Below, piece after piece: positions 1-46,902 of a stretch of DNA of 64,000 nucleotides. Source of the DNA: Escherichia coli (GTDB taxonomy: Bacteria > Pseudomonadota > Gammaproteobacteria > Enterobacterales > Enterobacteriaceae). Made by a program: the position numbers and the translations under genes. The notes beneath the pieces are model-generated. The model did no database searches and was not told where the DNA came from. It was given only the letters and a program-made list of their open reading frames with translations. Every line of letters begins with the position of its first letter. Position 1 is the first letter of the stretch. The stretch lies in the NCBI RefSeq assembly GCF_013315695.1, contig NZ_CP054353.1; one strand, 5' to 3'.

Positions 1-11
1 GAATCCCCCCG

Positions 12-1067
12 TTAACCAATTTTGACGGTAACAAATTTGCGAATATCTGCCGGAACCGGCTGCGGTGCGCTGTGCGTCTGCACGTACTCAATCGCCGGAT
101 CGCCGTCCTCAATCCAGTTTTTCGGGTAAAACATGTTTTGCGTTGCGCCCGTTCTTACCGCTTCCTGTTCCAGGATCGCACCATAGGCCACCAGCCCTTT
201 ATTGTTGGTGTTGCCCAGGACCAGCAAATCAGGCTCAAGGAAATATTTTTCTGTGCCGTCGCTGTCAGTGTATTTGCCGGAATAGACGATAAGGGCCAGA
301 TCACCAAGATAGCCTTTAAAGCTCACCACTTCGCCCAGGTTTTTACATGCCAGCTCTGCGGCGGATTCTGAACCACGGGAGAGATCGTACAGTTCACGGA
401 ATTTTTTAAAGCTGCGTAACATGCGCCATACATCAACGCCCATAATCATGACGTTTGCGGGGCAACCTGCCTGATCTGCGTATAGCTCAATGTCATAGAT
501 TGGGTCGTGTATGTCTTTGTCCTGCTCTGACCATTTTTTACCGTCGGCCTGCTCTATGATGTTTTTTTCCGGTATCTTCCAGTCGATTTCATAGCGCTCT
601 ATGCCTTCGCCCTCAATGATGTTTTTTCCGGTCGTTACCGCATTTACCGCCAGCCATTCCACGCGCGCTTTAATGGCGTTTATCTGGCGGCGCATGTTGC
701 CAGTAATCAGGCGCATACGGCGGTAGGTAGGGTCGTTAAGCTGTGCTGGATCTTCTCCAGCCATGCGCATTATTGTTTTTAATGGATCGATTTCGTGTTT
801 TGGCTTCATGTAGCCAGGGCGAATAATGCTTGTTTCGTACCCTTTATCGCGCTGAACCTGGCTACCCACCATAGGCGAACAAAACGCCGACATAGTGACT
901 TCTTCAATATCCAGGTTATCTAACATGATGTCCTGTGTGTTGAATGTCGCCACGTTCGGGAAAAACAGCGCGGTAAACAGCGGACTGAATTTAAATTCCG
1001 CAATATCCTCGCGATTCAGGTACGCAAAAAGCTGGTTAGTGTTAAGTGCTATTGCTTTTACTGTCAT
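12..1067 (-). CDS. Major capsid protein, lambda gpE family
   Basis: 351-aa ORF; translation shares many conserved blocks with lambda E as I recall it (GY.KPKHE, DP.YRR.R, RSFK, RGS.SE, VYSG.Y, VLGNT, YPKNW..GDPA, QSAP). Start overlaps stop of upstream gene (TAATG); GGGGGTGA RBS. Confidence 0.8.
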   Translation of the reverse strand: MTVKAIALNTNQLFAYLNREDIAEFKFSPLFTALFFPNVATFNTQDIMLDNLDIEEVTMSAFCSPMVGSQVQRDKGYETSIIRPGYMKPKHEIDPLKTIMRMAGEDPAQLNDPTYRRMRLITGNMRRQINAIKARVEWLAVNAVTTGKNIIEGEGIERYEIDWKIPEKNIIEQADGKKWSEQDKDIHDPIYDIELYADQAGCPANVMIMGVDVWRMLRSFKKFRELYDLSRGSESAAELACKNLGEVVSFKGYLGDLALIVYSGKYTDSDGTEKYFLEPDLLVLGNTNNKGLVAYGAILEQEAVRTGATQNMFYPKNWIEDGDPAIEYVQTHSAPQPVPADIRKFVTVKIG

Positions 1068-1273
1068 TATTCACCCCCGTGAACCTGATTCATACCCAGC
1101 GCCGCGCGTAAATAGGCGCGTACCTGCCAGCCTGTTGACGGCTCAACCATCGCCAGCGGATCAAGTCCTGCCGCAATGCCTGCTTTTACGTTCTGCTGGT
1201 GGCGTTCCTTGAGCGCCTTCACGATGTCGGGGCTTATGTACACCGAAACACCGCCTTTTTTCTCTTCAGCCAT
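1067..1273 (-). CDS. Hypothetical small protein (68 aa), first gene of capsid operon
   Basis: ORF with AAGAGGA RBS ~10 nt upstream; translationally coupled to capsid gene; no recognisable family. Confidence 0.45.
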   Translation of the reverse strand: MAEEKKGGVSVYISPDIVKALKERHQQNVKAGIAAGLDPLAMVEPSTGWQVRAYLRAALGMNQVHGGE

Positions 1274-1304
1274 AGTAAGAAATTCCTCTTTGACTTAAAA
1301 AATC

Positions 1305-1358
1305 ATAACTGGATGTTCATCCAGTTATGATTATAATCATGATTGCATTTTGTGCAAT
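1305..1358 (-). promoter_or_regulatory. Promoter/operator of capsid operon: three adjacent palindromes overlapping sigma70-like -35/-10
   Basis: Perfect 24-bp palindrome ATAACTGGATG-TT-CATCCAGTTAT (1305-1328); 14-bp palindrome ATGATTATAATCAT (1327-1340) containing TATAAT on minus strand; ATTGCA-N5-TGCAAT (1342-1358) containing TTGCAC -35 at 16-bp spacing. Confidence 0.5.
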
Positions 1359-1436
1359 GATATTGAGTTGCGTTGCAAATTATGAAATTATTATCCCGAT
1401 CATGTGTGTCAGTGCACCAAAAAACCTCATATGCAA

Positions 1437-1510
1437 AAGCCCGATAAGCCACCTCTGACCTTATCGGGCTTTTTTTGGGCGCAAAAAAGCCGGATTGCTC
1501 CGGCTGTGTG
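1437..1510 (-). terminator. Two tandem hairpin terminators downstream of PerC-like gene
   Basis: GCCCGATAAG...CTTATCGGGC hairpin flanked by A-run and T-run (bidirectional), then AGCCGG-attgct-CCGGCT hairpin followed by T-run on minus strand. Confidence 0.5.
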
Positions 1511-1527
1511 GTGTGGTTCTGGTATTC

Positions 1528-1776
1528 CTACTCTGCTAATTTGCTCAGCCCCATGTCTGCGTAAGTGCGATTTACTGCATTTCTCAGGTCTGCATAGTTC
1601 TCCGTTGGCGGCTCCGGTGGCCTCTGTGCCTTCCTGGAACATTCCAGCCGTCGCATCGTGATGTGATGCCGTTCCTTGTCTGTCTCCACCAGCATCATGA
1701 CTTCACCCCATCGCGCCGCCGCCCTCCGGTAAAATCCTTTCGCTTCGAGTTCTTCCGCTATGCGGTCATGTACCAT
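1528..1776 (-). CDS. PerC-like transcriptional regulator (82 aa)
   Basis: Start chosen at internal ATG with GAGGGGGTGA RBS 10 nt after SSB stop; motif AEELEAKGFYRRAAARW resembles the PerC/Pch family signature from memory; needs profile search. Confidence 0.45.
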   Translation of the reverse strand: MVHDRIAEELEAKGFYRRAAARWGEVMMLVETDKERHHITMRRLECSRKAQRPPEPPTENYADLRNAVNRTYADMGLSKLAE

Positions 1777-1786
1777 CGTCACCCCC

Positions 1787-2197
1787 TCAGAACGGAATAT
1801 CATCACCGTAAGGGTCATCGCCTCCCGCTGGTGGCTGATTACCCTGTGCGCCTGTGGTTTTGCGTCTGTTCCCGCCAGGACGTGCCGCACGGGCACTGAT
1901 TACGCTGTCTGCAATAACCTGATAACCCTGACGCGTCTCCCCGTTCTGTCCGGTCCACTGGCTTACCTGCATCGTGCCGGATACGCTGGCAACGTCGCCT
2001 TTTTGATGTTTAGCCAGGAAGTCGGCCTGCTTACCAAATGCGATGACCGATAGCCATAACGTCGCCTGTCCGTCCTGTGCCTGACTGCATGGCAGTGATA
2101 CCGCCATACGCGCCAGCGTCATCGGTGTGCCCTTGCTGGTCTGTTTTACCTGCGGGTCGTCCACCAGCCGACCGTAAGCCGCTATCTGTGCTGTCAT
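1787..2197 (-). CDS. ssb: Single-stranded DNA-binding protein (SSB)
   Basis: 136-aa ORF, Gly/Pro/Gln-rich C-terminal linker ending in acidic tip ...GDDIPF, the hallmark SSB C-terminus; GGAGAGGTGG RBS; ATGA overlap with upstream gene. Confidence 0.8.
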   Translation of the reverse strand: MTAQIAAYGRLVDDPQVKQTSKGTPMTLARMAVSLPCSQAQDGQATLWLSVIAFGKQADFLAKHQKGDVASVSGTMQVSQWTGQNGETRQGYQVIADSVISARAARPGGNRRKTTGAQGNQPPAGGDDPYGDDIPF

Positions 2198-2445
2198 GAT
2201 TCCACCTCTCCGGTTTTAACGTTGATGGTTGTTACCTGTTCCGCTTCGGCAATCTCCCGTTCTGTCAGCGTGGCAAAGTTTGCCGCCGCCGTGGTCATGA
2301 ATGCGCTTATCAGGTCGGGATGTTCCTTCGCGTATCCTTCCCGCGTGTGGCGGTCTATCGTTCTGATTGCCACCTTTAAGGTGTGCTCAGTCATGTCTAA
2401 CGCTTTATATTTTGGCTCTGTTCTGTCTCTGCGTGTTCTGGTCAT
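2194..2445 (-). CDS. Hypothetical protein (83 aa) between ori and ssb
   Basis: ORF with GAGGTGG RBS before ATG at 2445 (ORF track extends to TTG at 2457); coupled to ssb by ATGA overlap; no recognised family. Confidence 0.45.
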   Translation of the reverse strand: MTRTRRDRTEPKYKALDMTEHTLKVAIRTIDRHTREGYAKEHPDLISAFMTTAAANFATLTEREIAEAEQVTTINVKTGEVES

Positions 2446-2477
2446 TTGCCACCTCAATTTATATATATAGAAACATG

Positions 2478-2795
2478 TGCGGGTTATGCGGGTTATTGGG
2501 TTATCTTAGCGTGCTAACCATTTTTTATCCTTTTATATCAGTATTTTGCAAAACACCCTGTTTATTATTTGCCCACCACGTAACCCGCAAAACGCTCAAA
2601 ATAACCCGCAAACGGGGTTTTTTCTGCGGGTTACGCATGACTGTCCGGTGTTACTTCAGTTATTCGCCTGCGGGTTATAATCGTGCTTTTGCGGGTTATA
2701 AATGCCCTTTTGCGGGTTACGTGCGGGTTATTGGTTTCCTTTATATTCATGCACTTAATACACTTATACACAGGATAACCCGCATAACCCGCAAT
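2478..2795. repeat. Iteron array / replication origin of the island
   Basis: About 11 copies of the 9-mer GCGGGTTA(T/C) in both orientations with AT-rich spacers, including tandem pairs, directly downstream of the primase-helicase gene. Confidence 0.7.
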
Positions 2796-2815
2796 TTTTT
2801 TCCTCACACAGGGGA

Positions 2816-4939
2816 TTAATCTTCATCATCAGGCTGGAACATCAGCACGTAAAAAACATGCTGCTTACCCCCAATCTTGCCCAGCGCCTTTTTTTTGTAT
2901 CGGCGATCGCTTCCCTTCTCCAGCATTCCGGCAGCATCCAGGGCACGCGCAAAATGCGCCGGATTAAATCCCTTCGCTATCTCACTCTCAAACACGTGCG
3001 GGAACGTGTAATAGCGCATCTCGTCATCTTCGTTGCGAATGCTCCCTTTTCTGTATCCGGCAAGCTCTTTAATCGGTAAATCACGCTCATCTGTATTGGG
3101 GTACGGAAGGTAGCGGCTAAACCCAAACGACGACAAAAACGCCTCAGCCTGTTCAACCATCTGTTTAAATTCCCTGTTACCCGTGCCGAACTCCTTCACC
3201 CAGGCATTAAAGTTATGCTGTATCGCGTCGCGGCATTCCTGCACGACCCAGCCAGTTACATGACCGGAAAGCACAAGCGCGGCCTCCAGTATGGCGAAAC
3301 GTTCACCCACGCGGTGGACCTGCTCGCCGTAGCTCTCCGGTATCAGGTTGCGCCACCGTTCGCGGCATTCCCTTACCGTATCCTTTGCCTCCTGCTGGTG
3401 GCCTGCCAGCCATTTAACCCACTCACGACCCGCCGCCCCGTGATTTGCTGTCCAGGCATCCTTTAACGCGTCAGCATGTTCCTTACCGTTGCTGTATTCG
3501 TGAAATTTCGTGGCTTTTTCCATCGGAACGTTAAGCAGTCGGACAAGCTGCCCCGCCTTAACTTTTATCCCCTCACTTTTGAGGAATGTCTCAACGTCCA
3601 TTTCTCCGGTGCTGATTGCCACCGTTCGCCAGTGTTTGATCTCCCTGTTGCCGCCATCCTTCGCCCCCTGCAATTTCCCTGAACCGTTAAACAGCGTATA
3701 AGCAGACGTTGACACTTCCCGCGCATTTCCGGCCTGGCCTATCTCATCCAGTGGTAAAAGCCCGTCATTATGGGCCTCGGCCTCATTGGCAATACCTAAC
3801 GCCGTGCCGTACCAGGTCAGCCGCTGCGCGTCCGGCTCTCCCCATAAACTTGATGCGATGTTCTGCGTGGTGGTCTTACCTGCCGATGACTGTTCGAAAA
3901 GATGCACCCCGAAGCCGTCAGCACCCACAAGGCCAATTAAAGGCGCTGCCAGTGACGTTGCCACACCCAGCATCATTGAGGCATTACCGCCAGCCAGCCG
4001 CGCCACACTCTCGCGCCAGCCCTCCGCCGTACCCGCCACGGAATAACCGTTAATCGCGGCGCTTTTTCCGGTAAACAGGATCGGTTTTTCAGAATCACCA
4101 ATGATCGAACCGTCCGGCATGATGTACGCGCCAAAATGCCAGCCCGTTGTTGTGCTTAACTGCCATTCCTCATGGCTTCCGCTTAACTGCATCCAGTCCG
4201 CCAGGATTGCCCTGTATTTGCCGTTGGTTGTCACGTTCAGCCCGTGATCTTTAAGTAACCGCCAGCCGTCACGGTCGCCGATACCACCACACGGGATCGC
4301 CATTGTGATGACTTCATGATTTGCTAATTTTTTCCAGCGCATGACGCGGTAATGCTCTTTACCGATCGTCCCCGTTCCCAGTAGTTCAAGCGGAGAACAT
4401 AACCACGTCTCAGGCCGGATAATTTCGCCTGACTGCTTATCCACTTTGGGCGTTACCCAGAAAACACCATCGGCGCGACTTTCAACGCGTGGCTTTAATT
4501 CGTCATCGCTATGGCTTCCGGTATCTTTTTTCTTTACCGGAAACTCAATAACCAGACCATCAGAAAGATTCTGCCGCTCACGGGCCAGATATTCGCGCCA
4601 GTTCTCCACCTCCTGACCGTGCATTCCATCAGGGTAAAAATTTGCATCCTGTACGCCTGCCGCCGCCAGCTTCTGACCAATCGCCTTGATCATTACTGGC
4701 TCAAGATGTCCGGCCCTGAATATGCGTACTGATTTTCGGCCTTCCGGCACAATTTGCAGCTTATCCAGTTCGGCAAGTTGTTGCTCTCCAAGCCAGACAG
4801 GAGGCACGTTATCGCCAGCCAGTCGCCCGTCCTGTTCCTGCCACTGTTTCGCATGTGCCCAGGCATCACTACCCGCAAAAATGATGACTTCCGTCATTTT
4901 GTCACGTGGCTGGTGTTTTAAATTTGGCGCTTTTTTCAT
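2816..4939 (-). CDS. Primase-helicase (P4 alpha-like, D5/SF3-type)
   Basis: ~707-aa ORF; Walker A-like SSAGKTTT; size and position (next to iteron ori, downstream of int/alpA) typical of satellite replication proteins. Likely start ATG at 4939 with GGAGAG RBS, overlapping upstream stop (ATGA); ORF track extends to 4954. Confidence 0.75.
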   Translation of the reverse strand: MKKAPNLKHQPRDKMTEVIIFAGSDAWAHAKQWQEQDGRLAGDNVPPVWLGEQQLAELDKLQIVPEGRKSVRIFRAGHLEPVMIKAIGQKLAAAGVQDANFYPDGMHGQEVENWREYLARERQNLSDGLVIEFPVKKKDTGSHSDDELKPRVESRADGVFWVTPKVDKQSGEIIRPETWLCSPLELLGTGTIGKEHYRVMRWKKLANHEVITMAIPCGGIGDRDGWRLLKDHGLNVTTNGKYRAILADWMQLSGSHEEWQLSTTTGWHFGAYIMPDGSIIGDSEKPILFTGKSAAINGYSVAGTAEGWRESVARLAGGNASMMLGVATSLAAPLIGLVGADGFGVHLFEQSSAGKTTTQNIASSLWGEPDAQRLTWYGTALGIANEAEAHNDGLLPLDEIGQAGNAREVSTSAYTLFNGSGKLQGAKDGGNREIKHWRTVAISTGEMDVETFLKSEGIKVKAGQLVRLLNVPMEKATKFHEYSNGKEHADALKDAWTANHGAAGREWVKWLAGHQQEAKDTVRECRERWRNLIPESYGEQVHRVGERFAILEAALVLSGHVTGWVVQECRDAIQHNFNAWVKEFGTGNREFKQMVEQAEAFLSSFGFSRYLPYPNTDERDLPIKELAGYRKGSIRNEDDEMRYYTFPHVFESEIAKGFNPAHFARALDAAGMLEKGSDRRYKKKALGKIGGKQHVFYVLMFQPDDED

Positions 4940-5235
4940 TTCTGCTCTCTCCACGCGGCAATCATGTTTTTCAGTTCCTGTAGTTTTTTATCCACATCCA
5001 CACGTGACACATGGTTATTTCTGGAAGTCGGGATTTCCCGCCTGAATCTGCTAATAAAGATCTCCACGTTCAGCGAACTATGAAATGAATAGCCATCACG
5101 AATAAAATACACACGGTCAAACATCAGTTCTTTTACCGTTACTCTGTTGCCGTTCTTATCCAGATAAATAGCGCCGGGGATAATTTTGGGGTGTGCATAA
5201 CCGCTGGCAGTCAAGCCAGATAAATATGTTCTCAT
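4936..5235 (-). CDS. Hypothetical protein (99 aa), low-GC cargo
   Basis: ORF translationally coupled to primase gene (ATGA); local GC ~30-38% versus ~50% for neighbours; no recognised domain. Confidence 0.5.
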   Translation of the reverse strand: MRTYLSGLTASGYAHPKIIPGAIYLDKNGNRVTVKELMFDRVYFIRDGYSFHSSLNVEIFISRFRREIPTSRNNHVSRVDVDKKLQELKNMIAAWREQK

Positions 5236-5241
5236 GATTAT

Positions 5242-5562
5242 TTATCCCCGATTTGAATCAGTATTCGCTTTCTTTATAGCATTTAATGCATTTGTGGCAT
5301 TTTCAATGGTGCACCGTAACGAAATATCAAACTGCCCAAGCATTGCCAGTAACAAACCGATATTACCCATATCAATGCGCATGGCCTTTTCGTCATATTC
5401 CTCATTTTCTGACGCATACCACATCAGGCTACCAATTGACGCAATACCCATTGATATATTGTCAGTAGCCCCATCCGCAGCGGAATAAACTTTTTTAGCA
5501 ATATCATGCTCACAGTTAAAATGCGGATTAATCAGGTACTGGTAATTGGTCATGTCAGGCAT
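5242..5562 (-). CDS. Hypothetical protein (106 aa), low-GC cargo
   Basis: ORF starting ATGCCTGA-overlapped with upstream 67-aa gene; low GC; no recognised domain. Confidence 0.5.
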   Translation of the reverse strand: MPDMTNYQYLINPHFNCEHDIAKKVYSAADGATDNISMGIASIGSLMWYASENEEYDEKAMRIDMGNIGLLLAMLGQFDISLRCTIENATNALNAIKKANTDSNRG

Positions 5563-5758
5563 GGCACACCCCCTGACGAATACGGGCGGCGAATACCATC
5601 ACGCAGCCAGCCGGGGATTGCTGGCGTGCTTCCTGTTCGCTGCTGGCCTCAATGGTAATCACGCGCGGTTGTGCCGTGCTCAGGGCGATAAAACGCCAGA
5701 TGTATTTATTCAGGTTGTGCGAGTCCCGCCCTTGCGGGTGTGTGGTATGATTTAACAT
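5555..5758 (-). CDS. Small conserved satellite protein (67 aa), possibly Icd-like
   Basis: 3' portion of a long spurious ORF; ATG at 5758 preceded by GAGG; native-like GC; YIWRF...FAARIR pattern vaguely matches Icd-like annotations from memory (unverified). Confidence 0.4.
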   Translation of the reverse strand: MLNHTTHPQGRDSHNLNKYIWRFIALSTAQPRVITIEASSEQEARQQSPAGCVMVFAARIRQGVCHA

Positions 5759-5839
5759 AGCTACCTCGATACTGTTGCTATCGTTGGTTGTTAGACGCCC
5801 TGCATGTGTTGCGAGCACTGCGGGGCGTTGCTCTTTCAG

Positions 5840-5885
5840 GTGTATTTCACCTTTGCTTTTTAATTTACTCACTGGTGAAATACAC
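5840..5885. promoter_or_regulatory. Perfect 12-bp inverted repeat in divergent promoter region (candidate operator)
   Basis: GTGTATTTCACC (5840-5851) and GGTGAAATACAC (5874-5885) separated by a 22-nt loop, followed by T-rich tract; lies between divergently oriented 67-aa gene and RHH gene. Confidence 0.45.
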
Positions 5886-5951
5886 TTCAAGCCTTTTTTT
5901 ATCATTTTTTTTGCGTATACTGACATACACCAATTTTTAGGAGATCCAGAA

Positions 5952-6131
5952 ATGGCAACTGGTGCAAAGAACGCAAAATCACAAATGACAACTGTCAGAA
6001 TCCCACATGAAGTAATGGATGATATTGAGCAACTTAAAGAACCTGGCGAAAGTACCGCTGGTTTTTTAGTTACTGCCGCAAAAGGCGAGATCAAACGCCG
6101 CCAGCGCCGCAAGGCCAAAGAATCAGAATAA
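5952..6131 (+). CDS. Ribbon-helix-helix-like small DNA-binding protein (59 aa), candidate repressor
   Basis: ATG at 5952 preceded by AGGAGAT RBS; N-terminal region (TTVRIPHEVMDDIEQLK) has RHH/CopG-like character; basic C-terminal tail. Confidence 0.45.
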   Translation: MATGAKNAKSQMTTVRIPHEVMDDIEQLKEPGESTAGFLVTAAKGEIKRRQRRKAKESE

Positions 6132-6188
6132 TCACTATCAGCGCCGTGGCGTGAGGTACTCCGGCGCATTGCTTTACAGGTCAGTACT

Positions 6189-6398
6189 ATGAGCAAAAAA
6201 CACCGATCAGCAGATGAGATTTTTGCAGAACAACGAAGATTGCTTTTGCAAAGTATCATTTCACGCCAGCAAGAGAAGGCGCGAGCTAAACAAATGCCAC
6301 CAAATACAGAACCAGCGCCTACAAGATTTGCGCTTGATGATTTTCTCGATAAACACCCCAGGGTAATGAAAGCAAACAAAAACCGCCCACCAGCCTGA
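6189..6398 (+). CDS. Hypothetical protein (69 aa)
   Basis: ORF downstream of RHH gene on same strand, followed by a strong terminator; weak RBS; no recognised family. Confidence 0.35.
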   Translation: MSKKHRSADEIFAEQRRLLLQSIISRQQEKARAKQMPPNTEPAPTRFALDDFLDKHPRVMKANKNRPPA

Positions 6399-6441
6399 TA
6401 GCGGCTATCATCCCCGTGCTTATGTTTAGTGTTTCCAAACT

Positions 6442-6469
6442 GGCGACCTCCCAAGGTCGCCTTTTTTTT
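6442..6469 (+). terminator. Rho-independent terminator
   Basis: GGCGACCT-ccca-AGGTCGCC hairpin followed by T8. Confidence 0.65.
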
Positions 6470-6488
6470 ATGTGCCATTGTCACCACC

Positions 6489-6785
6489 TCAAGCGGCCTT
6501 GCCTGAATTAATGCGTTCGCGGTTTTTGACCCACGCCACAACCTCAGACTTAACCCAGCCAACAGAACGACCGCCGAGACTGATACGGGAGGGGAAGCGG
6601 CCCTGCTTTTCCATCTCGTAACGAGTTGTGCGGCAAACGCCTGTTAGCTCTCTGCATTCTTTTTCGCGGATTACGCGATCTTCATTTATTTCACGCATAC
6701 AAAAACCTACATAAAAATTACGTATATAAACTTTTCTCTTAGCTGTAGATATATGAGATCGGATATTACTTAGATTCTTTTTCAC
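6489..6785 (-). CDS. alpA: AlpA/Vis-family phage transcriptional regulator / excisionase-like
   Basis: C-terminal part matches AlpA-type HTH pattern (ECRELTGVCRTTRYEMEKQGRFP...GGRSVGWVKSEVVAWV). Start uncertain: GTG at 6785 or ATG at 6698. Confidence 0.6.
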   Translation of the reverse strand: MKKNLSNIRSHISTAKRKVYIRNFYVGFCMREINEDRVIREKECRELTGVCRTTRYEMEKQGRFPSRISLGGRSVGWVKSEVVAWVKNRERINSGKAA

Positions 6786-7107
6786 CTCTTAAATTAAAAA
6801 CACAACCATGCTAAAGGCTTTGTTCGCTAAGGTTCGTAGAAGCTCGTTAGTGTTTAAAATCGTGTCACGAGTTTTTAAGCGACGCAACAAAAAATGTCGT
6901 TATTTGGCATGACACCTGAATTACCTCATTAAAAACAAATAGATAAACCATCAGGTGTTGGAACAATCAAGAAACAGAGAATAAGAACTAAGAAGAAGAC
7001 ATTTCAAATTTTTTCAATACTTGACACATATAAATCGTCGATATTTGCCGATATTCGACGATTTATTTTAGAGGGCCATTTTTCGCAAGAAAAACAGCCG
7101 TAATTTG

Positions 7108-8346
7108 TCAAGAATTTTGGGAGTAAATTCGCGGGGTCATAACAACGATTTTTTCATCATTGTTCTGGAGAAGCTCGAGACGCTCAACCCATAGATTAAG
7201 AGCGTCACGTTTTGCATCGAGATAACGGGAGTGATTATAGACTCGTTGCATTCCTGGCAACTGGTGCGCGGTTAGCTGCTCCACTACATGAGGATCCACG
7301 CCTAAATCGTTCAGCATCGTTGTAAACGTGTGCCGGATGTCGTGCAACGTCCAGGGGGCTTGATTAATGCGTCTGTGTGCCGTTCTTCCGTACTCTGATA
7401 CAGATGATTGCCCTTTCAGTTCTCCGAGTAATAAGCCCGTGTGTCGGTTCTGCTCCACCAGCTTCGTTACGAACGGCAAGATCGCTTCCGGTATTGGCCT
7501 GAATATTGCTACCTTCGTTTTGCTGTGTTCTTTCGGCACAGTCCAGAGCATTTCTTTAAAATCCCATTCCTGGACCTCAGAGCGTCTTAGCTCAGTGGTA
7601 CGGCATCCGAAGACAATCAGGAGGCGAATCAGGGCGCTGTAGTACGGTGTGTAAATTTTTTCATCCAGGGCGCGTAGTAATTCCCCAAGCTCCTTGTTTG
7701 TTAGTACGCGCTCGCTTATTTCTGCTTTTTTCCCAACATCACCTACAACCATATCATCTAGAACGTTGGTAATTGCGTAGCGTCGTTTGCGGCAGTACTT
7801 AAGCGCCTGCTTGCATACCTGTAACAAAAATCCTGCTGATACCGGATTACGCATAGCAAGCTGATCAAAACAGGTCAGCCAGTGGCGTAGCTCGCATTTT
7901 TCCAGCGGCATAGCACCAATATGGCTGATTATGTGTGTATTGATCCGGCTTTTCAGAGATTCGTAATCTGTGCGCTTTTCCTTCGCGTACGATTCAAGCC
8001 AGTAAGTGAGCGCTTCCTTAACCGTAACAGGTGATAACGCTTCCTGTACGGTGTGATTAAGCTCATGGCGTGGATTTTTACCCTCAGCAAGCCAGGCGCG
8101 ACACTGCGACGCTTTTTCCCTGGCTGCTTTCAGGCTCAAATCTGGATAATTTCCCAGCCTCAGACGTTCAGGGGCTACCTTCCTGCCTGTTCCGGCCCTG
8201 TAAGTGAAATACCAGGTTAACAGGCCATTGGTTGAATGCCTTACGCTAAGGTTGCCACCATCATTAAAAAAGGTGTTTTTTGTGGTTGGTGATCCGCTTA
8301 ATTTTCGTAAAAGAGTGTCGCTAAGTCTATGAATTGCCCTGCTCAT
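7108..8346 (-). CDS. int: Tyrosine-type site-specific integrase
   Basis: 412-aa ORF; C-terminal catalytic region with HDIRHT and ...VYNHSRY (R-H-R-Y family pattern); located at island edge next to host gene. Confidence 0.85.
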   Translation of the reverse strand: MSRAIHRLSDTLLRKLSGSPTTKNTFFNDGGNLSVRHSTNGLLTWYFTYRAGTGRKVAPERLRLGNYPDLSLKAAREKASQCRAWLAEGKNPRHELNHTVQEALSPVTVKEALTYWLESYAKEKRTDYESLKSRINTHIISHIGAMPLEKCELRHWLTCFDQLAMRNPVSAGFLLQVCKQALKYCRKRRYAITNVLDDMVVGDVGKKAEISERVLTNKELGELLRALDEKIYTPYYSALIRLLIVFGCRTTELRRSEVQEWDFKEMLWTVPKEHSKTKVAIFRPIPEAILPFVTKLVEQNRHTGLLLGELKGQSSVSEYGRTAHRRINQAPWTLHDIRHTFTTMLNDLGVDPHVVEQLTAHQLPGMQRVYNHSRYLDAKRDALNLWVERLELLQNNDEKIVVMTPRIYSQNS

Positions 8347-8401
8347 GTTTCGAATTTCCGGTCATCAAAATTAACTACACCATTGACTACACCGAGCATC
8401 G

Positions 8402-8434
8402 TACAAGGGCGAACTGTGACGAACAAGGGCGAAC
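8402..8434. repeat. Direct repeats (ACAAGGGCGAAC x2) in int-proximal attachment region
   Basis: Two copies of a 12-mer 8 bp apart, plus CGAACAC repeats nearby, between int start and cspD; candidate integrase arm-type sites. Confidence 0.3.
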
Positions 8435-8750
8435 AAGAAAAACGAAATTATCCTTTATAATCATAGAAATAAATGAGATACCTACACCATGACGAACACC
8501 CACGAACACTAACTGATAAATAACTATCATCTATCGTTGGCATCAGCGACATCTGTCACATTCCTGTCAATAGCGTTAACTGCTTCAAATTTTTGATTCA
8601 TACCTGCCCCCTGGCCCCTGTCAAATGCTTGACGGCTCGCCCTAATTCTCTAAATTGTATTTCTAGAGTTGGCGAGGTTTTGAACAGCCCCCTCTCTGAC
8701 CCCGGTTTATTCCATCTTACTTGTATAAGATTTGCGAAGGATGTCGAAGC

Positions 8751-8975
8751 ATGGAAAAGGGTACTGTTAAGTGGTTCAACAATGCCAAAGGGTTTGGTTT
8801 CATCTGCCCTGAAGGCGGCGGCGAAGATATTTTCGCTCATTATTCCACCATTCAGATGGATGGTTACAGAACGCTAAAAGCTGGACAATCCGTTCAGTTT
8901 GATGTCCACCAGGGGCCAAAAGGCAATCACGCCAGTGTTATTGTGCCCGTCGAAGTAGAAGCGGCAGTCGCATAG
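8751..8975 (+). CDS. cspD: Stationary-phase cold-shock-domain protein CspD
   Basis: 74-aa translation MEKGTVKWFNNAKGFGFI... recognised as CspD; ORF track begins upstream at an earlier in-frame ATG. Confidence 0.9.
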   Translation: MEKGTVKWFNNAKGFGFICPEGGGEDIFAHYSTIQMDGYRTLKAGQSVQFDVHQGPKGNHASVIVPVEVEAAVA

Positions 8976-9010
8976 CTCTTCTGTCTCATTGTGTACATCC
9001 TAAAGGCAAA

Positions 9011-12220: not shown

Positions 12221-13213
12221 ATGGTGAAATCGACGTCATGTATAATCATTGATTTCATGAATATGTCGCAGCTAACTGAACGGACCTTTACGCCATCTGA
12301 ATCTCTCAGCAGCCTGTCACTTTTTCTTAGTCTGGCACGTGGACAGTGTCGGCCGGGTAAATTCTGGCATCGCCGTAGTTTTCGCCAGAAATTTTTGCTG
12401 CGCTCGTTGATTATGCCGCGTTTAAGCGTTGAGTGGATGAACGAACTTTCCCACTGGCCCAATCTCAATGTGTTGTTAACGCGCCAGCCGCGACTGCCTG
12501 TGCGTCTGCATCGCCCTTACCTTGCGGCGAATCTTAGCCGTAAGCAATTGCTGGAGGCGTTACGTTACCATTATGCGTTACTCCGCGGGTGTATGTCGGC
12601 GGAAGAATTCAGCTTATATTTGAATACCCCCGGGCTGCAACTGGCGAAGCTGGAAGGCAAAAACGGCGAGCAGTTCACGCTTGAGCTGACCATGATGATC
12701 TCAATGGATAAAGAAGGTGACAGCACAATCCTGTTCCGCAACAGCGAAGGTATTCCTCTGGCAGAGATCACGTTTACTCTGTGTGAATATCAGGGGAAAA
12801 GAACAATGTTTATTGGCGGACTGCAAGGCGCAAAATGGGAAATTCCACATCAGGAAATCCAGAATGCGACGAAAGCCTGCCACGGGCTATTTCCCAAACG
12901 CCTTGTGATGGAAGCGGCCTGTCTGTTTGCCCAACGTTTGCAGGTAGAGCAGATTATTGCCGTCAGCAATGAAACGCATATTTACCGCAGCCTGCGTTAT
13001 CGCGATAAAGAAGGCAAGATCCACGCTGATTACAACGCTTTCTGGGAATCGGTTGGCGGCGTATGTGATGCTGAACGCCATTACCGCCTTCCAGCACAGA
13101 TAGCACGAAAAGAGATTGCCGAAATCGCCAGTAAAAAACGGGCTGAATACCGTCGGCGCTATGAGATGCTCGACGCTATTCAGCCACAAATGGCCACAAT
13201 GTTTCGCGGTTAA
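12221..13213 (+). CDS. ybjX: DUF535/VirK-like protein YbjX
   Basis: ORF in conserved K-12 position between macA and ybjD; start may be internal. Confidence 0.75.
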   Translation: MVKSTSCIIIDFMNMSQLTERTFTPSESLSSLSLFLSLARGQCRPGKFWHRRSFRQKFLLRSLIMPRLSVEWMNELSHWPNLNVLLTRQPRLPVRLHRPYLAANLSRKQLLEALRYHYALLRGCMSAEEFSLYLNTPGLQLAKLEGKNGEQFTLELTMMISMDKEGDSTILFRNSEGIPLAEITFTLCEYQGKRTMFIGGLQGAKWEIPHQEIQNATKACHGLFPKRLVMEAACLFAQRLQVEQIIAVSNETHIYRSLRYRDKEGKIHADYNAFWESVGGVCDAERHYRLPAQIARKEIAEIASKKRAEYRRRYEMLDAIQPQMATMFRG

Positions 13214-45813: not shown

Positions 45814-46902
45814 ATGAATAACCGGGAGAAGGAGATCCTTGCAATATTAAGGCGTAACCCGCTGATTCAGCAGAACGAAATTGCGGATATGCTGCAAATC
45901 AGCCGTTCGCGTGTTGCAGCGCATATTATGGATTTAATGCGCAAAGGACGGATTAAAGGCAAAGGTTACATTCTCACCGAGCAGGAATACTGCGTAGTGG
46001 TGGGGACAATCAATATGGATATTCGCGGGATGGCGGATATCCGTTACCCGCAAGCGGCTTCTCATCCCGGTACCATTCATTGCTCGGCAGGCGGCGTTGG
46101 ACGCAATATCGCCCACAATCTGGCGCTGTTAGGCCGCGACGTTCATTTGCTTTCAGTGATTGGCGATGACTTTTATGGCGAAATGCTCCTGGAAGAAACG
46201 CGCCGCGCCGGCGTGAATGTCTCCGGCTGCGTTCGTTTACATGGTCAAAGCACATCGACGTATCTGGCAATTGCCAATCGAGACGATCAAACCGTGCTGG
46301 CGATTAACGATACCCATCTGCTGGATCAGTTGACACCGCAACTACTGAACGGGTCGCGCGATTTACTTCGTCATGCGGGCGTGGTACTGGCTGATTGCAA
46401 CCTGACAGCCGAGGCGCTGGAGTGGGTCTTTACCCTCGCTGATGAAATCCCGGTGTTTGTCGATACCGTTTCAGAATTCAAAGCGGGCAAAATCAAACAC
46501 TGGCTGGCGCATATTCACACCCTGAAACCCACTTTACCGGAGCTGGAAATTTTATGGGGACAGGCGATCACCAGCGATGCTGACCGTAATGCCGCAGTGA
46601 ATGCATTACATCAGCAAGGTGTTCAGCAACTGTTTGTTTATTTGCCCGATGAGTCAGTTTATTGCAGCGAAAAGGATGGAGCACAATTTTTGCTGACCGC
46701 ACCAGCGCATACGACAGTAGACAGTTTTGGTGCTGACGATGGTTTTATGGCGGGTCTGGTATATAGCTTTCTGGAGGGAAACAATTTCCGTGACAGCGCC
46801 CGTTTTGCGATGGCCTGCGCGGCAATTTCACGCGCCAGCGGCAGCTTAAACAACCCTACCCTGTCTGCCGATAACGCGCTTTCATTAGTGCCAATGGTGT
46901 AA
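45814..46902 (+). CDS. yeiI: Sugar kinase with N-terminal HTH domain YeiI
   Basis: 362-aa PfkB-family kinase (GAGD motif) preceded by HTH. Confidence 0.85.
   Translation: MNNREKEILAILRRNPLIQQNEIADMLQISRSRVAAHIMDLMRKGRIKGKGYILTEQEYCVVVGTINMDIRGMADIRYPQAASHPGTIHCSAGGVGRNIAHNLALLGRDVHLLSVIGDDFYGEMLLEETRRAGVNVSGCVRLHGQSTSTYLAIANRDDQTVLAINDTHLLDQLTPQLLNGSRDLLRHAGVVLADCNLTAEALEWVFTLADEIPVFVDTVSEFKAGKIKHWLAHIHTLKPTLPELEILWGQAITSDADRNAAVNALHQQGVQQLFVYLPDESVYCSEKDGAQFLLTAPAHTTVDSFGADDGFMAGLVYSFLEGNNFRDSARFAMACAAISRASGSLNNPTLSADNALSLVPMV

Follow-up and report, generated by a model that had tools for sequence, protein, structure and literature searches.

What is the role of the dense array of short repeats that adjoins the replication gene of an integrated island of Escherichia coli, and which protein reads it? 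The array occupies positions 2478-2795 of a 64,000-nucleotide stretch of contig NZ_CP054353.1 (assembly GCF_013315695.1), hereafter the window, whose coordinates are used throughout. It lies directly downstream of rep, the gene for a protein that is probably an initiator-helicase, in an element that belongs to the phage-inducible chromosomal islands (PICIs). The array is very probably the vegetative replication origin of this E. coli PICI, and its repeats, or iterons, would be binding sites for the adjacent Rep. We base this on its position and architecture, the selective conservation of its repeats, their covariation with the Rep C-terminus, exchanges of rep and repeats as cassettes, and homology to tested systems. 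The original prediction of an iteron-type origin served by the neighbouring gene is thus upheld for an origin of the PICI kind.

An iteron array fills the gap downstream of rep

Origins of Staphylococcus aureus pathogenicity islands (SaPIs) and other PICIs are situated directly downstream of rep and contain 6-12 iterons around an AT-rich centre, two or more of them on each side and in opposite orientation (PMC9371898; PMC6092414). The array in the window has the same layout: it is found immediately 3′ of rep, with eleven exact iterons and a decayed one in opposed sets (at least two per side) around AT-rich DNA. The repeated word is GCGGGTTAY. Its exact matches in the 64-kb window number 14, of which 11 lie inside 2479-2792, seven on the plus and four on the minus strand; by chance the whole window would hold 0.91, and 100 shuffles gave at most 3. 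The three matches outside the array are lone singletons at 45854, 55265 and 62455, and no 8-mer count above 3 was found in any other 320-bp stretch of the window. The array begins 24 bp past the rep stop codon (2816; the gene is on the minus strand), stops 33 bp short of the ATG at 2445 that RefSeq uses as start of the next gene, and fills the entire intergenic gap between the two. About eleven copies in both orientations beside the replication gene had been announced from a first inspection of the DNA, and the recount agrees, giving eleven exact copies and a decayed twelfth.

Starting from the rep stop codon, a tandem pair of GCGGGTTAT iterons occupies 2784..2792 and 2775..2783 on the minus strand. 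Four plus-strand iterons follow, at 2723..2731 (GCGGGTTAT), 2712..2720 (GCGGGTTAC), and 2691..2699 and 2670..2678 (both GCGGGTTAT, in 21-bp phasing). Next come a plus-strand GCGGGTTAC copy at 2626..2634 and two minus-strand iterons at 2601..2609 (GCGGGTTAT) and 2580..2588 (GCGGGTTAC). The far end consists of plus-strand tandem iterons: the decayed copy TTGGGTTAT at 2497..2505, intact in the relatives L002, L006 and L007 and in the remote modules described below, and two GCGGGTTAT copies at 2488..2496 and 2479..2487. Spacing is regular: neighbouring copies are 9 bp apart in the tandem pairs at either end, 21 bp apart (two helical turns) in the inner sets and, once, 11 bp apart. AT content reaches 67% at 2732-2774, 66% at 2506-2579 and 86% at 2458-2478, compared with 49% for the whole window.

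A scan for host-factor sites revealed one site resembling that of integration host factor, with 1 mismatch, and a perfect match to the DnaA-box consensus TTATACACA at 2764-2772, inside the rep-proximal AT-rich spacer and abutting the tandem iterons next to rep. The DnaA box is kept in E. coli relatives, has one mismatch in L006 and is absent from the other iteron families. Because it is kept only in the closest relatives, we claim no requirement for DnaA. The only terminator-like hairpins seen, two weak ones on the strand of non-coding sense, do not exceed chance. No Rfam family matched window positions 1-9000, and no gene is annotated in the array interval of a 99.3%-identical RefSeq copy. 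Two mechanically called open reading frames (ORFs) that span the array (2367-2819 on the plus and 2631-2807 on the minus strand) were rejected as genes, since RefSeq relatives annotate nothing there.

The repeats are selectively conserved

The original prediction had named conservation of the repeats in related islands as a check on an origin. In pairwise alignments with the window, iteron columns were 86-99% identical against 40-78% elsewhere: 98.9% against 77.7% for L002, 86.4% against 44.3% for L006 and 87.5% against 39.7% for L007 (Fisher p 2e-7 to 3e-16). The sole iteron change in L006 and L007 is an identical C-to-T substitution in every copy, a case of concerted evolution of the word.

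The layout extends beyond the word. At 13 loci of other Enterobacterales, whose Reps are 58-75% identical to that of the window, a repeat cluster was present in each case within 300-400 bp after the rep stop codon. Its copies lie at nearly constant offsets after rep (about 25, 34 / 98, 109, 130, 151 / 194, 218, 239 / 291, 309) and in nearly the same orientations as in the window. The words themselves are others: GTGGGTTA, TGGGAYAAG, GTTGGTTCA or YCGGTTC.

The iteron word follows the C-terminus of Rep

Which part of Rep varies with the word? In L005, from E. albertii, the helicase core (residues 170-600) is 93% identical to that of the window and the last 93 residues only 36%; the word differs, the origin being CTTGTCCCA-type. 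In L006 and L007 the core is 71-73% identical, the last 93 residues are 67-69% identical, and the word is one base off. DNA homology with L005 breaks at about Rep residue 606 and is not regained before ssb; hence C-terminal domain and origin change hands together, as a single cassette. Over 20 loci we counted seven iteron words, five corresponding one-to-one with four DUF927 C-terminal types (one type has two words, a single base apart) and two with two P4-type Reps. These comparisons support the view that the word varies with the final ~105 residues of Rep, independently of identity in the helicase core.

A more drastic exchange was found in L063 (E. coli 23CRST038, NZ_AP045810.1 1635445-1645405), a sister island inserted at the cspD/yljB site as in the window. 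Homology covers window positions 1-2393 and 4570-9000, the shared parts of the island being 89-97% identical, whereas window 2394-4569 is replaced. The replacement carries a helicase and DNA-binding region with 51% identity to residues 320-771 of P4 alpha, followed after Rep by an origin with nine copies of TGTTCACC, the word labelled type-1 repeat in the P4 record (ori, crr). Thus a P4-like Rep reader is accompanied in L063 by P4's own repeats. The earlier suggestion that the iteron word defines replicon specificity gains comparative support from both sources, the seven words that follow Rep type and the cassette exchanges in L005 and L063.

We also scanned 2.9 million viral contigs for a tandem GCGGGTTAY pair, which occurred in 42. 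In 37 of the 42 the cluster stands 26-36 bp from the end of a window-type Rep, whose C-terminus has an identity of 84% or more. The remaining five, without such a Rep, are L026, L027, L029, L038 and L055, of which L038 resembles the remote module described below. High-GC L026 (IMG/VR contig 3300037067_009268) carries nine GCGGGTTAC copies at 12865-13125, directly after a 938-residue primase-polymerase gene with weak DUF927 similarity; tblastn detected no similarity in it to the C-terminus of the window Rep. L029 has four tandem GCGGGTTAY copies (8096-8131) and L027 and L055 have two each, with no DUF927 Rep within the fetched DNA.

Rep resembles the SaPI and Cch initiator-helicases

The rep gene (2816..4954, minus strand) encodes 712 residues; in RefSeq homologues the start codon is the ATG at 4939. 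The ORF is intact, and its product has 99% identity to a protein that many E. coli carry. Pfam matched DUF927 at residues 173-440 (E 8e-48) and, marginally, HTH_56, the C-terminal helix-turn-helix of Cch, at 637-706 (E 0.0016). NCBIfam gave a weak Cch match and no match to TIGR01613. Against PDB sequences, phmmer retrieved the SaPIbov1 Rep 8tch (E 1e-13) and Cch 5dgk of the staphylococcal cassette chromosome mec (SCCmec). The same two entries were the sole significant Foldseek matches of a full-length AlphaFold model (E 6e-10 over about 505 aligned columns; 45-sequence alignment, mean predicted local distance difference test, pLDDT, of 61). Across 45 homologues the Walker A (GKTT, 359-362) and Walker B (DE, 403-404) motifs do not vary. 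The sequence and fold matches, together with the invariant ATPase motifs, therefore indicate that Rep is an initiator-helicase of the SaPI-Rep / Cch type.

Homology breaks in the DNA, at window 4544/4570 and 3137, divide Rep into three shuffling modules: an N domain (about residues 1-137), the helicase core (about 138-606) and a C-terminal domain (about 607-712). The N domain (window 4544-4954) shuffles separately and is nearly identical in the otherwise unrelated P4-type Rep of the E. coli island EcCICFT073. It stands where longer paralogues, such as the 932-residue protein of L012 with Zn_Ribbon_Prim and Toprim_3 ahead of DUF927, and P4 alpha have their Zn-ribbon / TOPRIM primase. The N domain is predicted to adopt an alternating beta/alpha fold (pLDDT 80-90); it had no Pfam or NCBIfam match and no significant fold match in the PDB.

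A stand-alone sequence resembling the Rep C-terminus was noticed in L013 (Yersinia pekkanenii) at 5664-5873, about 1 kb downstream of rep, with 46% identity to residues 640-709 of the window Rep. This may be a fragment left by truncation of a Rep, or else a product that competes in trans for the iterons.

The array appears to be a fusion of two modules

Comparison with relatives splits the 318-bp array into what look like two fused modules, R (2668-2795), next to rep, and L (2446-2667). Homology with L003 ends exactly at window 2668 and resumes in ssb at 2230, leaving an indel of 2231-2667. Module R comprises four plus-strand iterons, a 43-bp AT-rich spacer (2732..2774), which is a candidate melting region and contains the DnaA box, and the two opposed tandem iterons. 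Module L consists of a (TA)5 tract (2460..2469), the three tandem iterons including the decayed one, a conserved palindrome TTAGC-GT-GCTAA (2506-2517) that starts a 74-bp AT-rich spacer (2506..2579), two iterons phased by 21 bp and the single junction copy at 2626..2634, whose orientation is reversed in remote L modules. Opposed iterons number four plus and two minus in R and two to three plus and two minus in L. The palindrome and (TA)5 are conserved in adjacent and remote L copies and partly in GTGGGTTA-type origins, and could be a second protein site and an unwinding element. We regard (TA)5 as a candidate unwinding element because it is kept in module L even far from any downstream gene.

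Many relatives have a short form in which module R alone, with six iterons, stands beside rep (L003, L004 and many viral contigs included). In short-origin relatives an L-like module was found 7.7-10.6 kb downstream of rep, at the island end, 85-1,270 bp past terL where terL is recognisable. It is in the same orientation relative to rep as the L of the window, and along some 190 bp its alignment columns are on average 83% identical. Eight of nine testable short-origin loci have it, the exception being L023. Conversely, no remote copy was present in L001, the sole composite origin with enough sequence past terL, nor in the ~300 bp available past terL in L056, another composite origin. Module L thus appears either to adjoin R or to lie remote from it. 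In composite origins, whatever the word, both halves share one word; therefore both would be read by the same Rep.

Just beyond the remote L module of L044, positions 440-500 (…GGGATTTCGATCCCCCCTCC…) resemble the 3′ end of a tRNA-like gene, which suggests that the remote module lies at the outermost border of the island, beside its attachment site.

Does module L take part in initiation? One answer, possible if rather doubtful, is that R alone is the origin proper and L (2446-2667) an accessory Rep-binding locus, either a cis enhancer like crr of P4 with looping by Rep, or a locus for copy number, incompatibility or handcuffing. R alone adjoins rep in many islands, and L is separable, being either beside R or 7.7-10.6 kb away. 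Satellite P4 likewise has two clusters of one repeat, crr beside alpha and ori about 4.7 kb distant, and in P1, F and RK2 extra iteron clusters act in copy number, incompatibility and handcuffing. However, L is built like R, with opposed iterons and an AT-rich spacer, and has (TA)5 in addition, so it is an equally possible initiation site; the long locus L023 has R without an L within 10.5 kb. We tentatively put forward a wider scheme, in which this family of PICI origins is bipartite. Two Rep-binding modules would be kept by selection, fused or 8-10 kb apart at the ends of the late-gene block, and would cooperate through Rep-mediated looping; L would either be where initiation really takes place or serve in copy control, and the ~137-residue N domain of Rep may be a new priming or primase-recruiting module.

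Weighing the origin against other roles of the repeats

Several points weigh against the origin reading as given above. The spacers of the array are only moderately AT-rich (66-67%). No primase domain was detectable in Rep with Pfam or NCBIfam. The neighbour had been described as a primase-helicase; its helicase half agrees with the DUF927 and 8tch/5dgk matches, and a primase half could not be demonstrated, the ~137-residue N domain standing in place of a Zn-ribbon / TOPRIM primase. 'Rep (initiator-helicase)-dependent' is therefore a safer term for this origin than 'primase-dependent'. The presumed reader is also poorly defined: residues 591-712 have pLDDT below 50 in the full-length model, values over two attempts ranged from 27 to 46 (43 for residues 560-712 modelled alone with 26 sequences), and PDB sequences searched with a profile of the C-terminal domain contained no meaningful match. 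A winged-helix reader there is an assumption carried over from the SaPI Reps, the HTH_56 match being marginal. Covariation of word and C-terminus could in part reflect physical linkage, as the two are adjacent and may form one recombination block. Finally, Rep binding, origin melting, helicase loading and the need for both modules are steps that we infer.

Three further readings of the array are much less probable. The island might be defective and the array a relic whose origin no longer fires, as the decayed copy at 2497-2505 could be taken to indicate; many chromosomal islands are degenerate, and only part of this one is visible in the window. This is improbable, as rep is intact with invariant ATPase motifs, int and alpA are intact as well, eleven copies are perfect and O157:H7 has an array 98.3% identical. 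Operators for a transcription regulator (AlpA, a PerC-like protein or another) of the operon formed by the small gene, ssb, perC and the capsid gene would explain why the array is directly upstream of that operon, with the leftmost tandem copies 33 bp from the ATG at 2445 and an adjacent TATATATA tract that could act as a -10 element. Yet the word varies with the Rep C-terminus while the flanking regulators and downstream genes stay unchanged, and the small gene keeps 84% identity even where the words of two islands are unrelated. Furthermore, module L with its TA tract also occurs at the island end, where no gene of the island follows it, and a consensus scan found no sigma-70-like promoter. 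We consider such an operator function very improbable, and a secondary transcriptional effect of Rep binding, by autoregulation or as a roadblock, possible.

A packaging site, that is pac or cosB-like repeats bound by the small terminase, has the least credence of all. Sites of small terminases are often short repeats, and the remote L module lies just past terL in capsid-forming relatives; nevertheless the array is tied to rep in islands with and without their own terS and terL, its word covaries with the Rep C-terminus, and the cos sites of EcCICFT073 were mapped as separate elements (PMC6092414). A replication origin recognised by Rep thus remains the strongly favoured reading of the array.

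Relation to known origins and a model of initiation

The closest tested counterpart is EcCICFT073, in which the rep and ori interval sustained a temperature-sensitive plasmid; deletion of rep abolished its maintenance and deletion of ori lowered it (PMC6092414). The window resembles it in island architecture, in gene order and in the origin interval, which lies between rep and a homologous small gene and has opposed terminal tandem pairs, inner sets and AT-rich spacers. Both Reps have the N-terminal ~140 residues in common and BLASTP aligns only the N-terminal ~150; the remainder is a TIGR01613 P4-type helicase and DNA-binding part in EcCICFT073, in contrast to the DUF927 / SaPI-Rep type of the window, and the words differ too (CTGTCTACC versus GCGGGTTAY). 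By analogy we infer that the window island would replicate autonomously.

SaPI Reps are self-loading initiator-helicases, and replication driven by rep plus ori, with binding and melting of the origin by Rep, has been shown for SaPIs (PMC9371898); SaPI/PICI iterons are read by the C-terminal winged-helix domain of Rep (PMC9371898; PMC6092414). The Reps of SaPIbov1 (8tch), SaPI1 and SaPI5 are homologous to that of the window by sequence and fold, and their origins likewise have opposed iterons 3′ of rep. By contrast, SaPI iterons are 5-6 bp long, against 8-9 bp in the window, whose host is Gram-negative, whose Rep has a distinct N domain and a C-terminal winged helix that is only assumed, and whose origin is doubled into two modules. 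SCCmec Cch (5dgk) shares the helicase family and fold and the marginal C-terminal helix-turn-helix match; identity is ~16%, and there is no established SCCmec counterpart of this iteron origin.

P4 also has 8-bp iterons in both orientations with 9-bp-spaced tandem pairs, and a cluster directly after its replication gene. That cluster is crr; hence the original comparison of the downstream layout to the classic P4 ori or PICI ori fits the PICI origin and fails for P4 ori. P4 ori is the second cluster of the same repeat and parallels the split form, R with a remote L. In P4, ori and crr are both needed in cis, and looping between them has been proposed. Unlike P4 alpha, the window Rep is without TIGR01613, Zn-ribbon and TOPRIM primase and is not an alpha homologue; the repeat differs as well (type-1 TGTTCACC in P4), and the modules of the window are contiguous. 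Iteron plasmids such as pSC101, R6K, RK2, F and P1 have in common with the window phased short direct repeats by an AT-rich unwinding region, a word that sets specificity, extra iteron clusters (control loci in the plasmids) and a DnaA box. Their winged-helix Reps have no helicase and depend on DnaA, DnaB and DnaC, whereas the predicted initiator of the window is itself the helicase. The window does not have a classical Rep_3-type iteron plasmid origin, given the DUF927 helicase and a DnaA box kept only in close relatives.

We propose the following sequence of events. After induction and excision the island Rep would be made and would assemble into hexamers, as an MCM-like helicase of the SaPI-Rep / Cch type that loads itself. 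Its C-terminal ~105 residues would read GCGGGTTAY, a word of 8-9 bp. On the model of SaPI Reps, hexamers would bind the iterons through these domains with no need for ATP. Phased iterons in opposite orientations across the AT-rich spacers would set Rep assemblies face to face, and the AT-rich DNA between them would melt. The Rep rings might then load themselves as 3′-5′ helicases, again as in SaPIs, and the island single-stranded DNA-binding protein (SSB), encoded two genes downstream, together with the host replisome would complete replication.

The surrounding island

The window is E. coli chromosome (macA, macB, cspD, aqpZ) with the island integrated at its left end. PHROG matches and ORFs give the island order, on the minus strand: int, alpA, small genes, DUF4222, rep, the array, a small gene, ssb, perC, a 68-residue gene and the major capsid gene. 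The integrase (7108-8346) and the AlpA-like regulator (6489-6785) are both intact, and DUF4222 is at 4936-5235. The first gene past the origin, at 2194..2445, is a small conserved one of 83-87 residues (phrog_1231), 84% identical to its EcCICFT073 counterpart and present whatever the Rep type. It is followed by the island SSB (1787..2197; phrog_44, E 7e-41, and RefSeq annotation of homologues), by the PerC-like regulator and the 68-residue gene between ssb and capsid, and by a major-capsid homologue cut near the window edge (12-1067). All of these are on the minus strand. At the visible island end, int adjoins cspD (8721-8975). The other end and any packaging genes are outside the view, because the window begins inside the capsid-homologue gene. 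A 335-residue ORF with a TTG start (5555-6562, minus strand) is probably no gene; relatives annotate Icd-like, YlcI/YnfO and hypothetical small genes there.

Gene for gene, the order matches that of EcCICFT073 of E. coli CFT073, and annotated relatives are syntenic as well. Integrase, alpA, unidirectional genes and rep followed by ori are all present, without a full phage gene set, as in Gram-negative PICIs, and by these features the element appears to be a member of the EcCICFT073 / EcCIEDL933 group. The array recurs at 98-99% identity in E. coli E110019 and O157:H7 genomes, within capsid-forming PICIs. As a 461-bp query it was at least 80% present in about 140 of 5,426 complete E. coli genomes; window 1-9000 was matched by at least 80% in one place in only 3 of them.

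Significance

PICI-type origins have already been described in Gram-positive and Gram-negative islands. A search of paper texts for GCGGGTTAT, which did not extend to the iterons drawn in Fig. 2a of PMC6092414, gave unrelated primer lists only, so prior publication of this exact origin is possible; searches for TGTTCACC and for 8TCH gave nothing useful. We consider modestly new the constancy of the layout over five DUF927-group words, the three-module Rep with exchange points at ~137 and ~606, and the fused-versus-split origin. A second module that is adjacent or remote raises the question whether PICI origins, like that of P4, need two cis elements. The natural swap series, one layout with five words and exchange at ~137/~606, is a ready specificity-swap system; word and Rep segment could serve to build orthogonal Rep/ori pairs and to probe DNA recognition by a self-loading helicase. 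PICIs transfer genes for virulence, defence and resistance with high frequency, and the replicon decides on their coexistence and on their amplification after induction by a helper phage. The word, the layout and the reader segment of Rep may thus allow replicon and incompatibility typing of E. coli PICIs, including the O157:H7 island with the same array.

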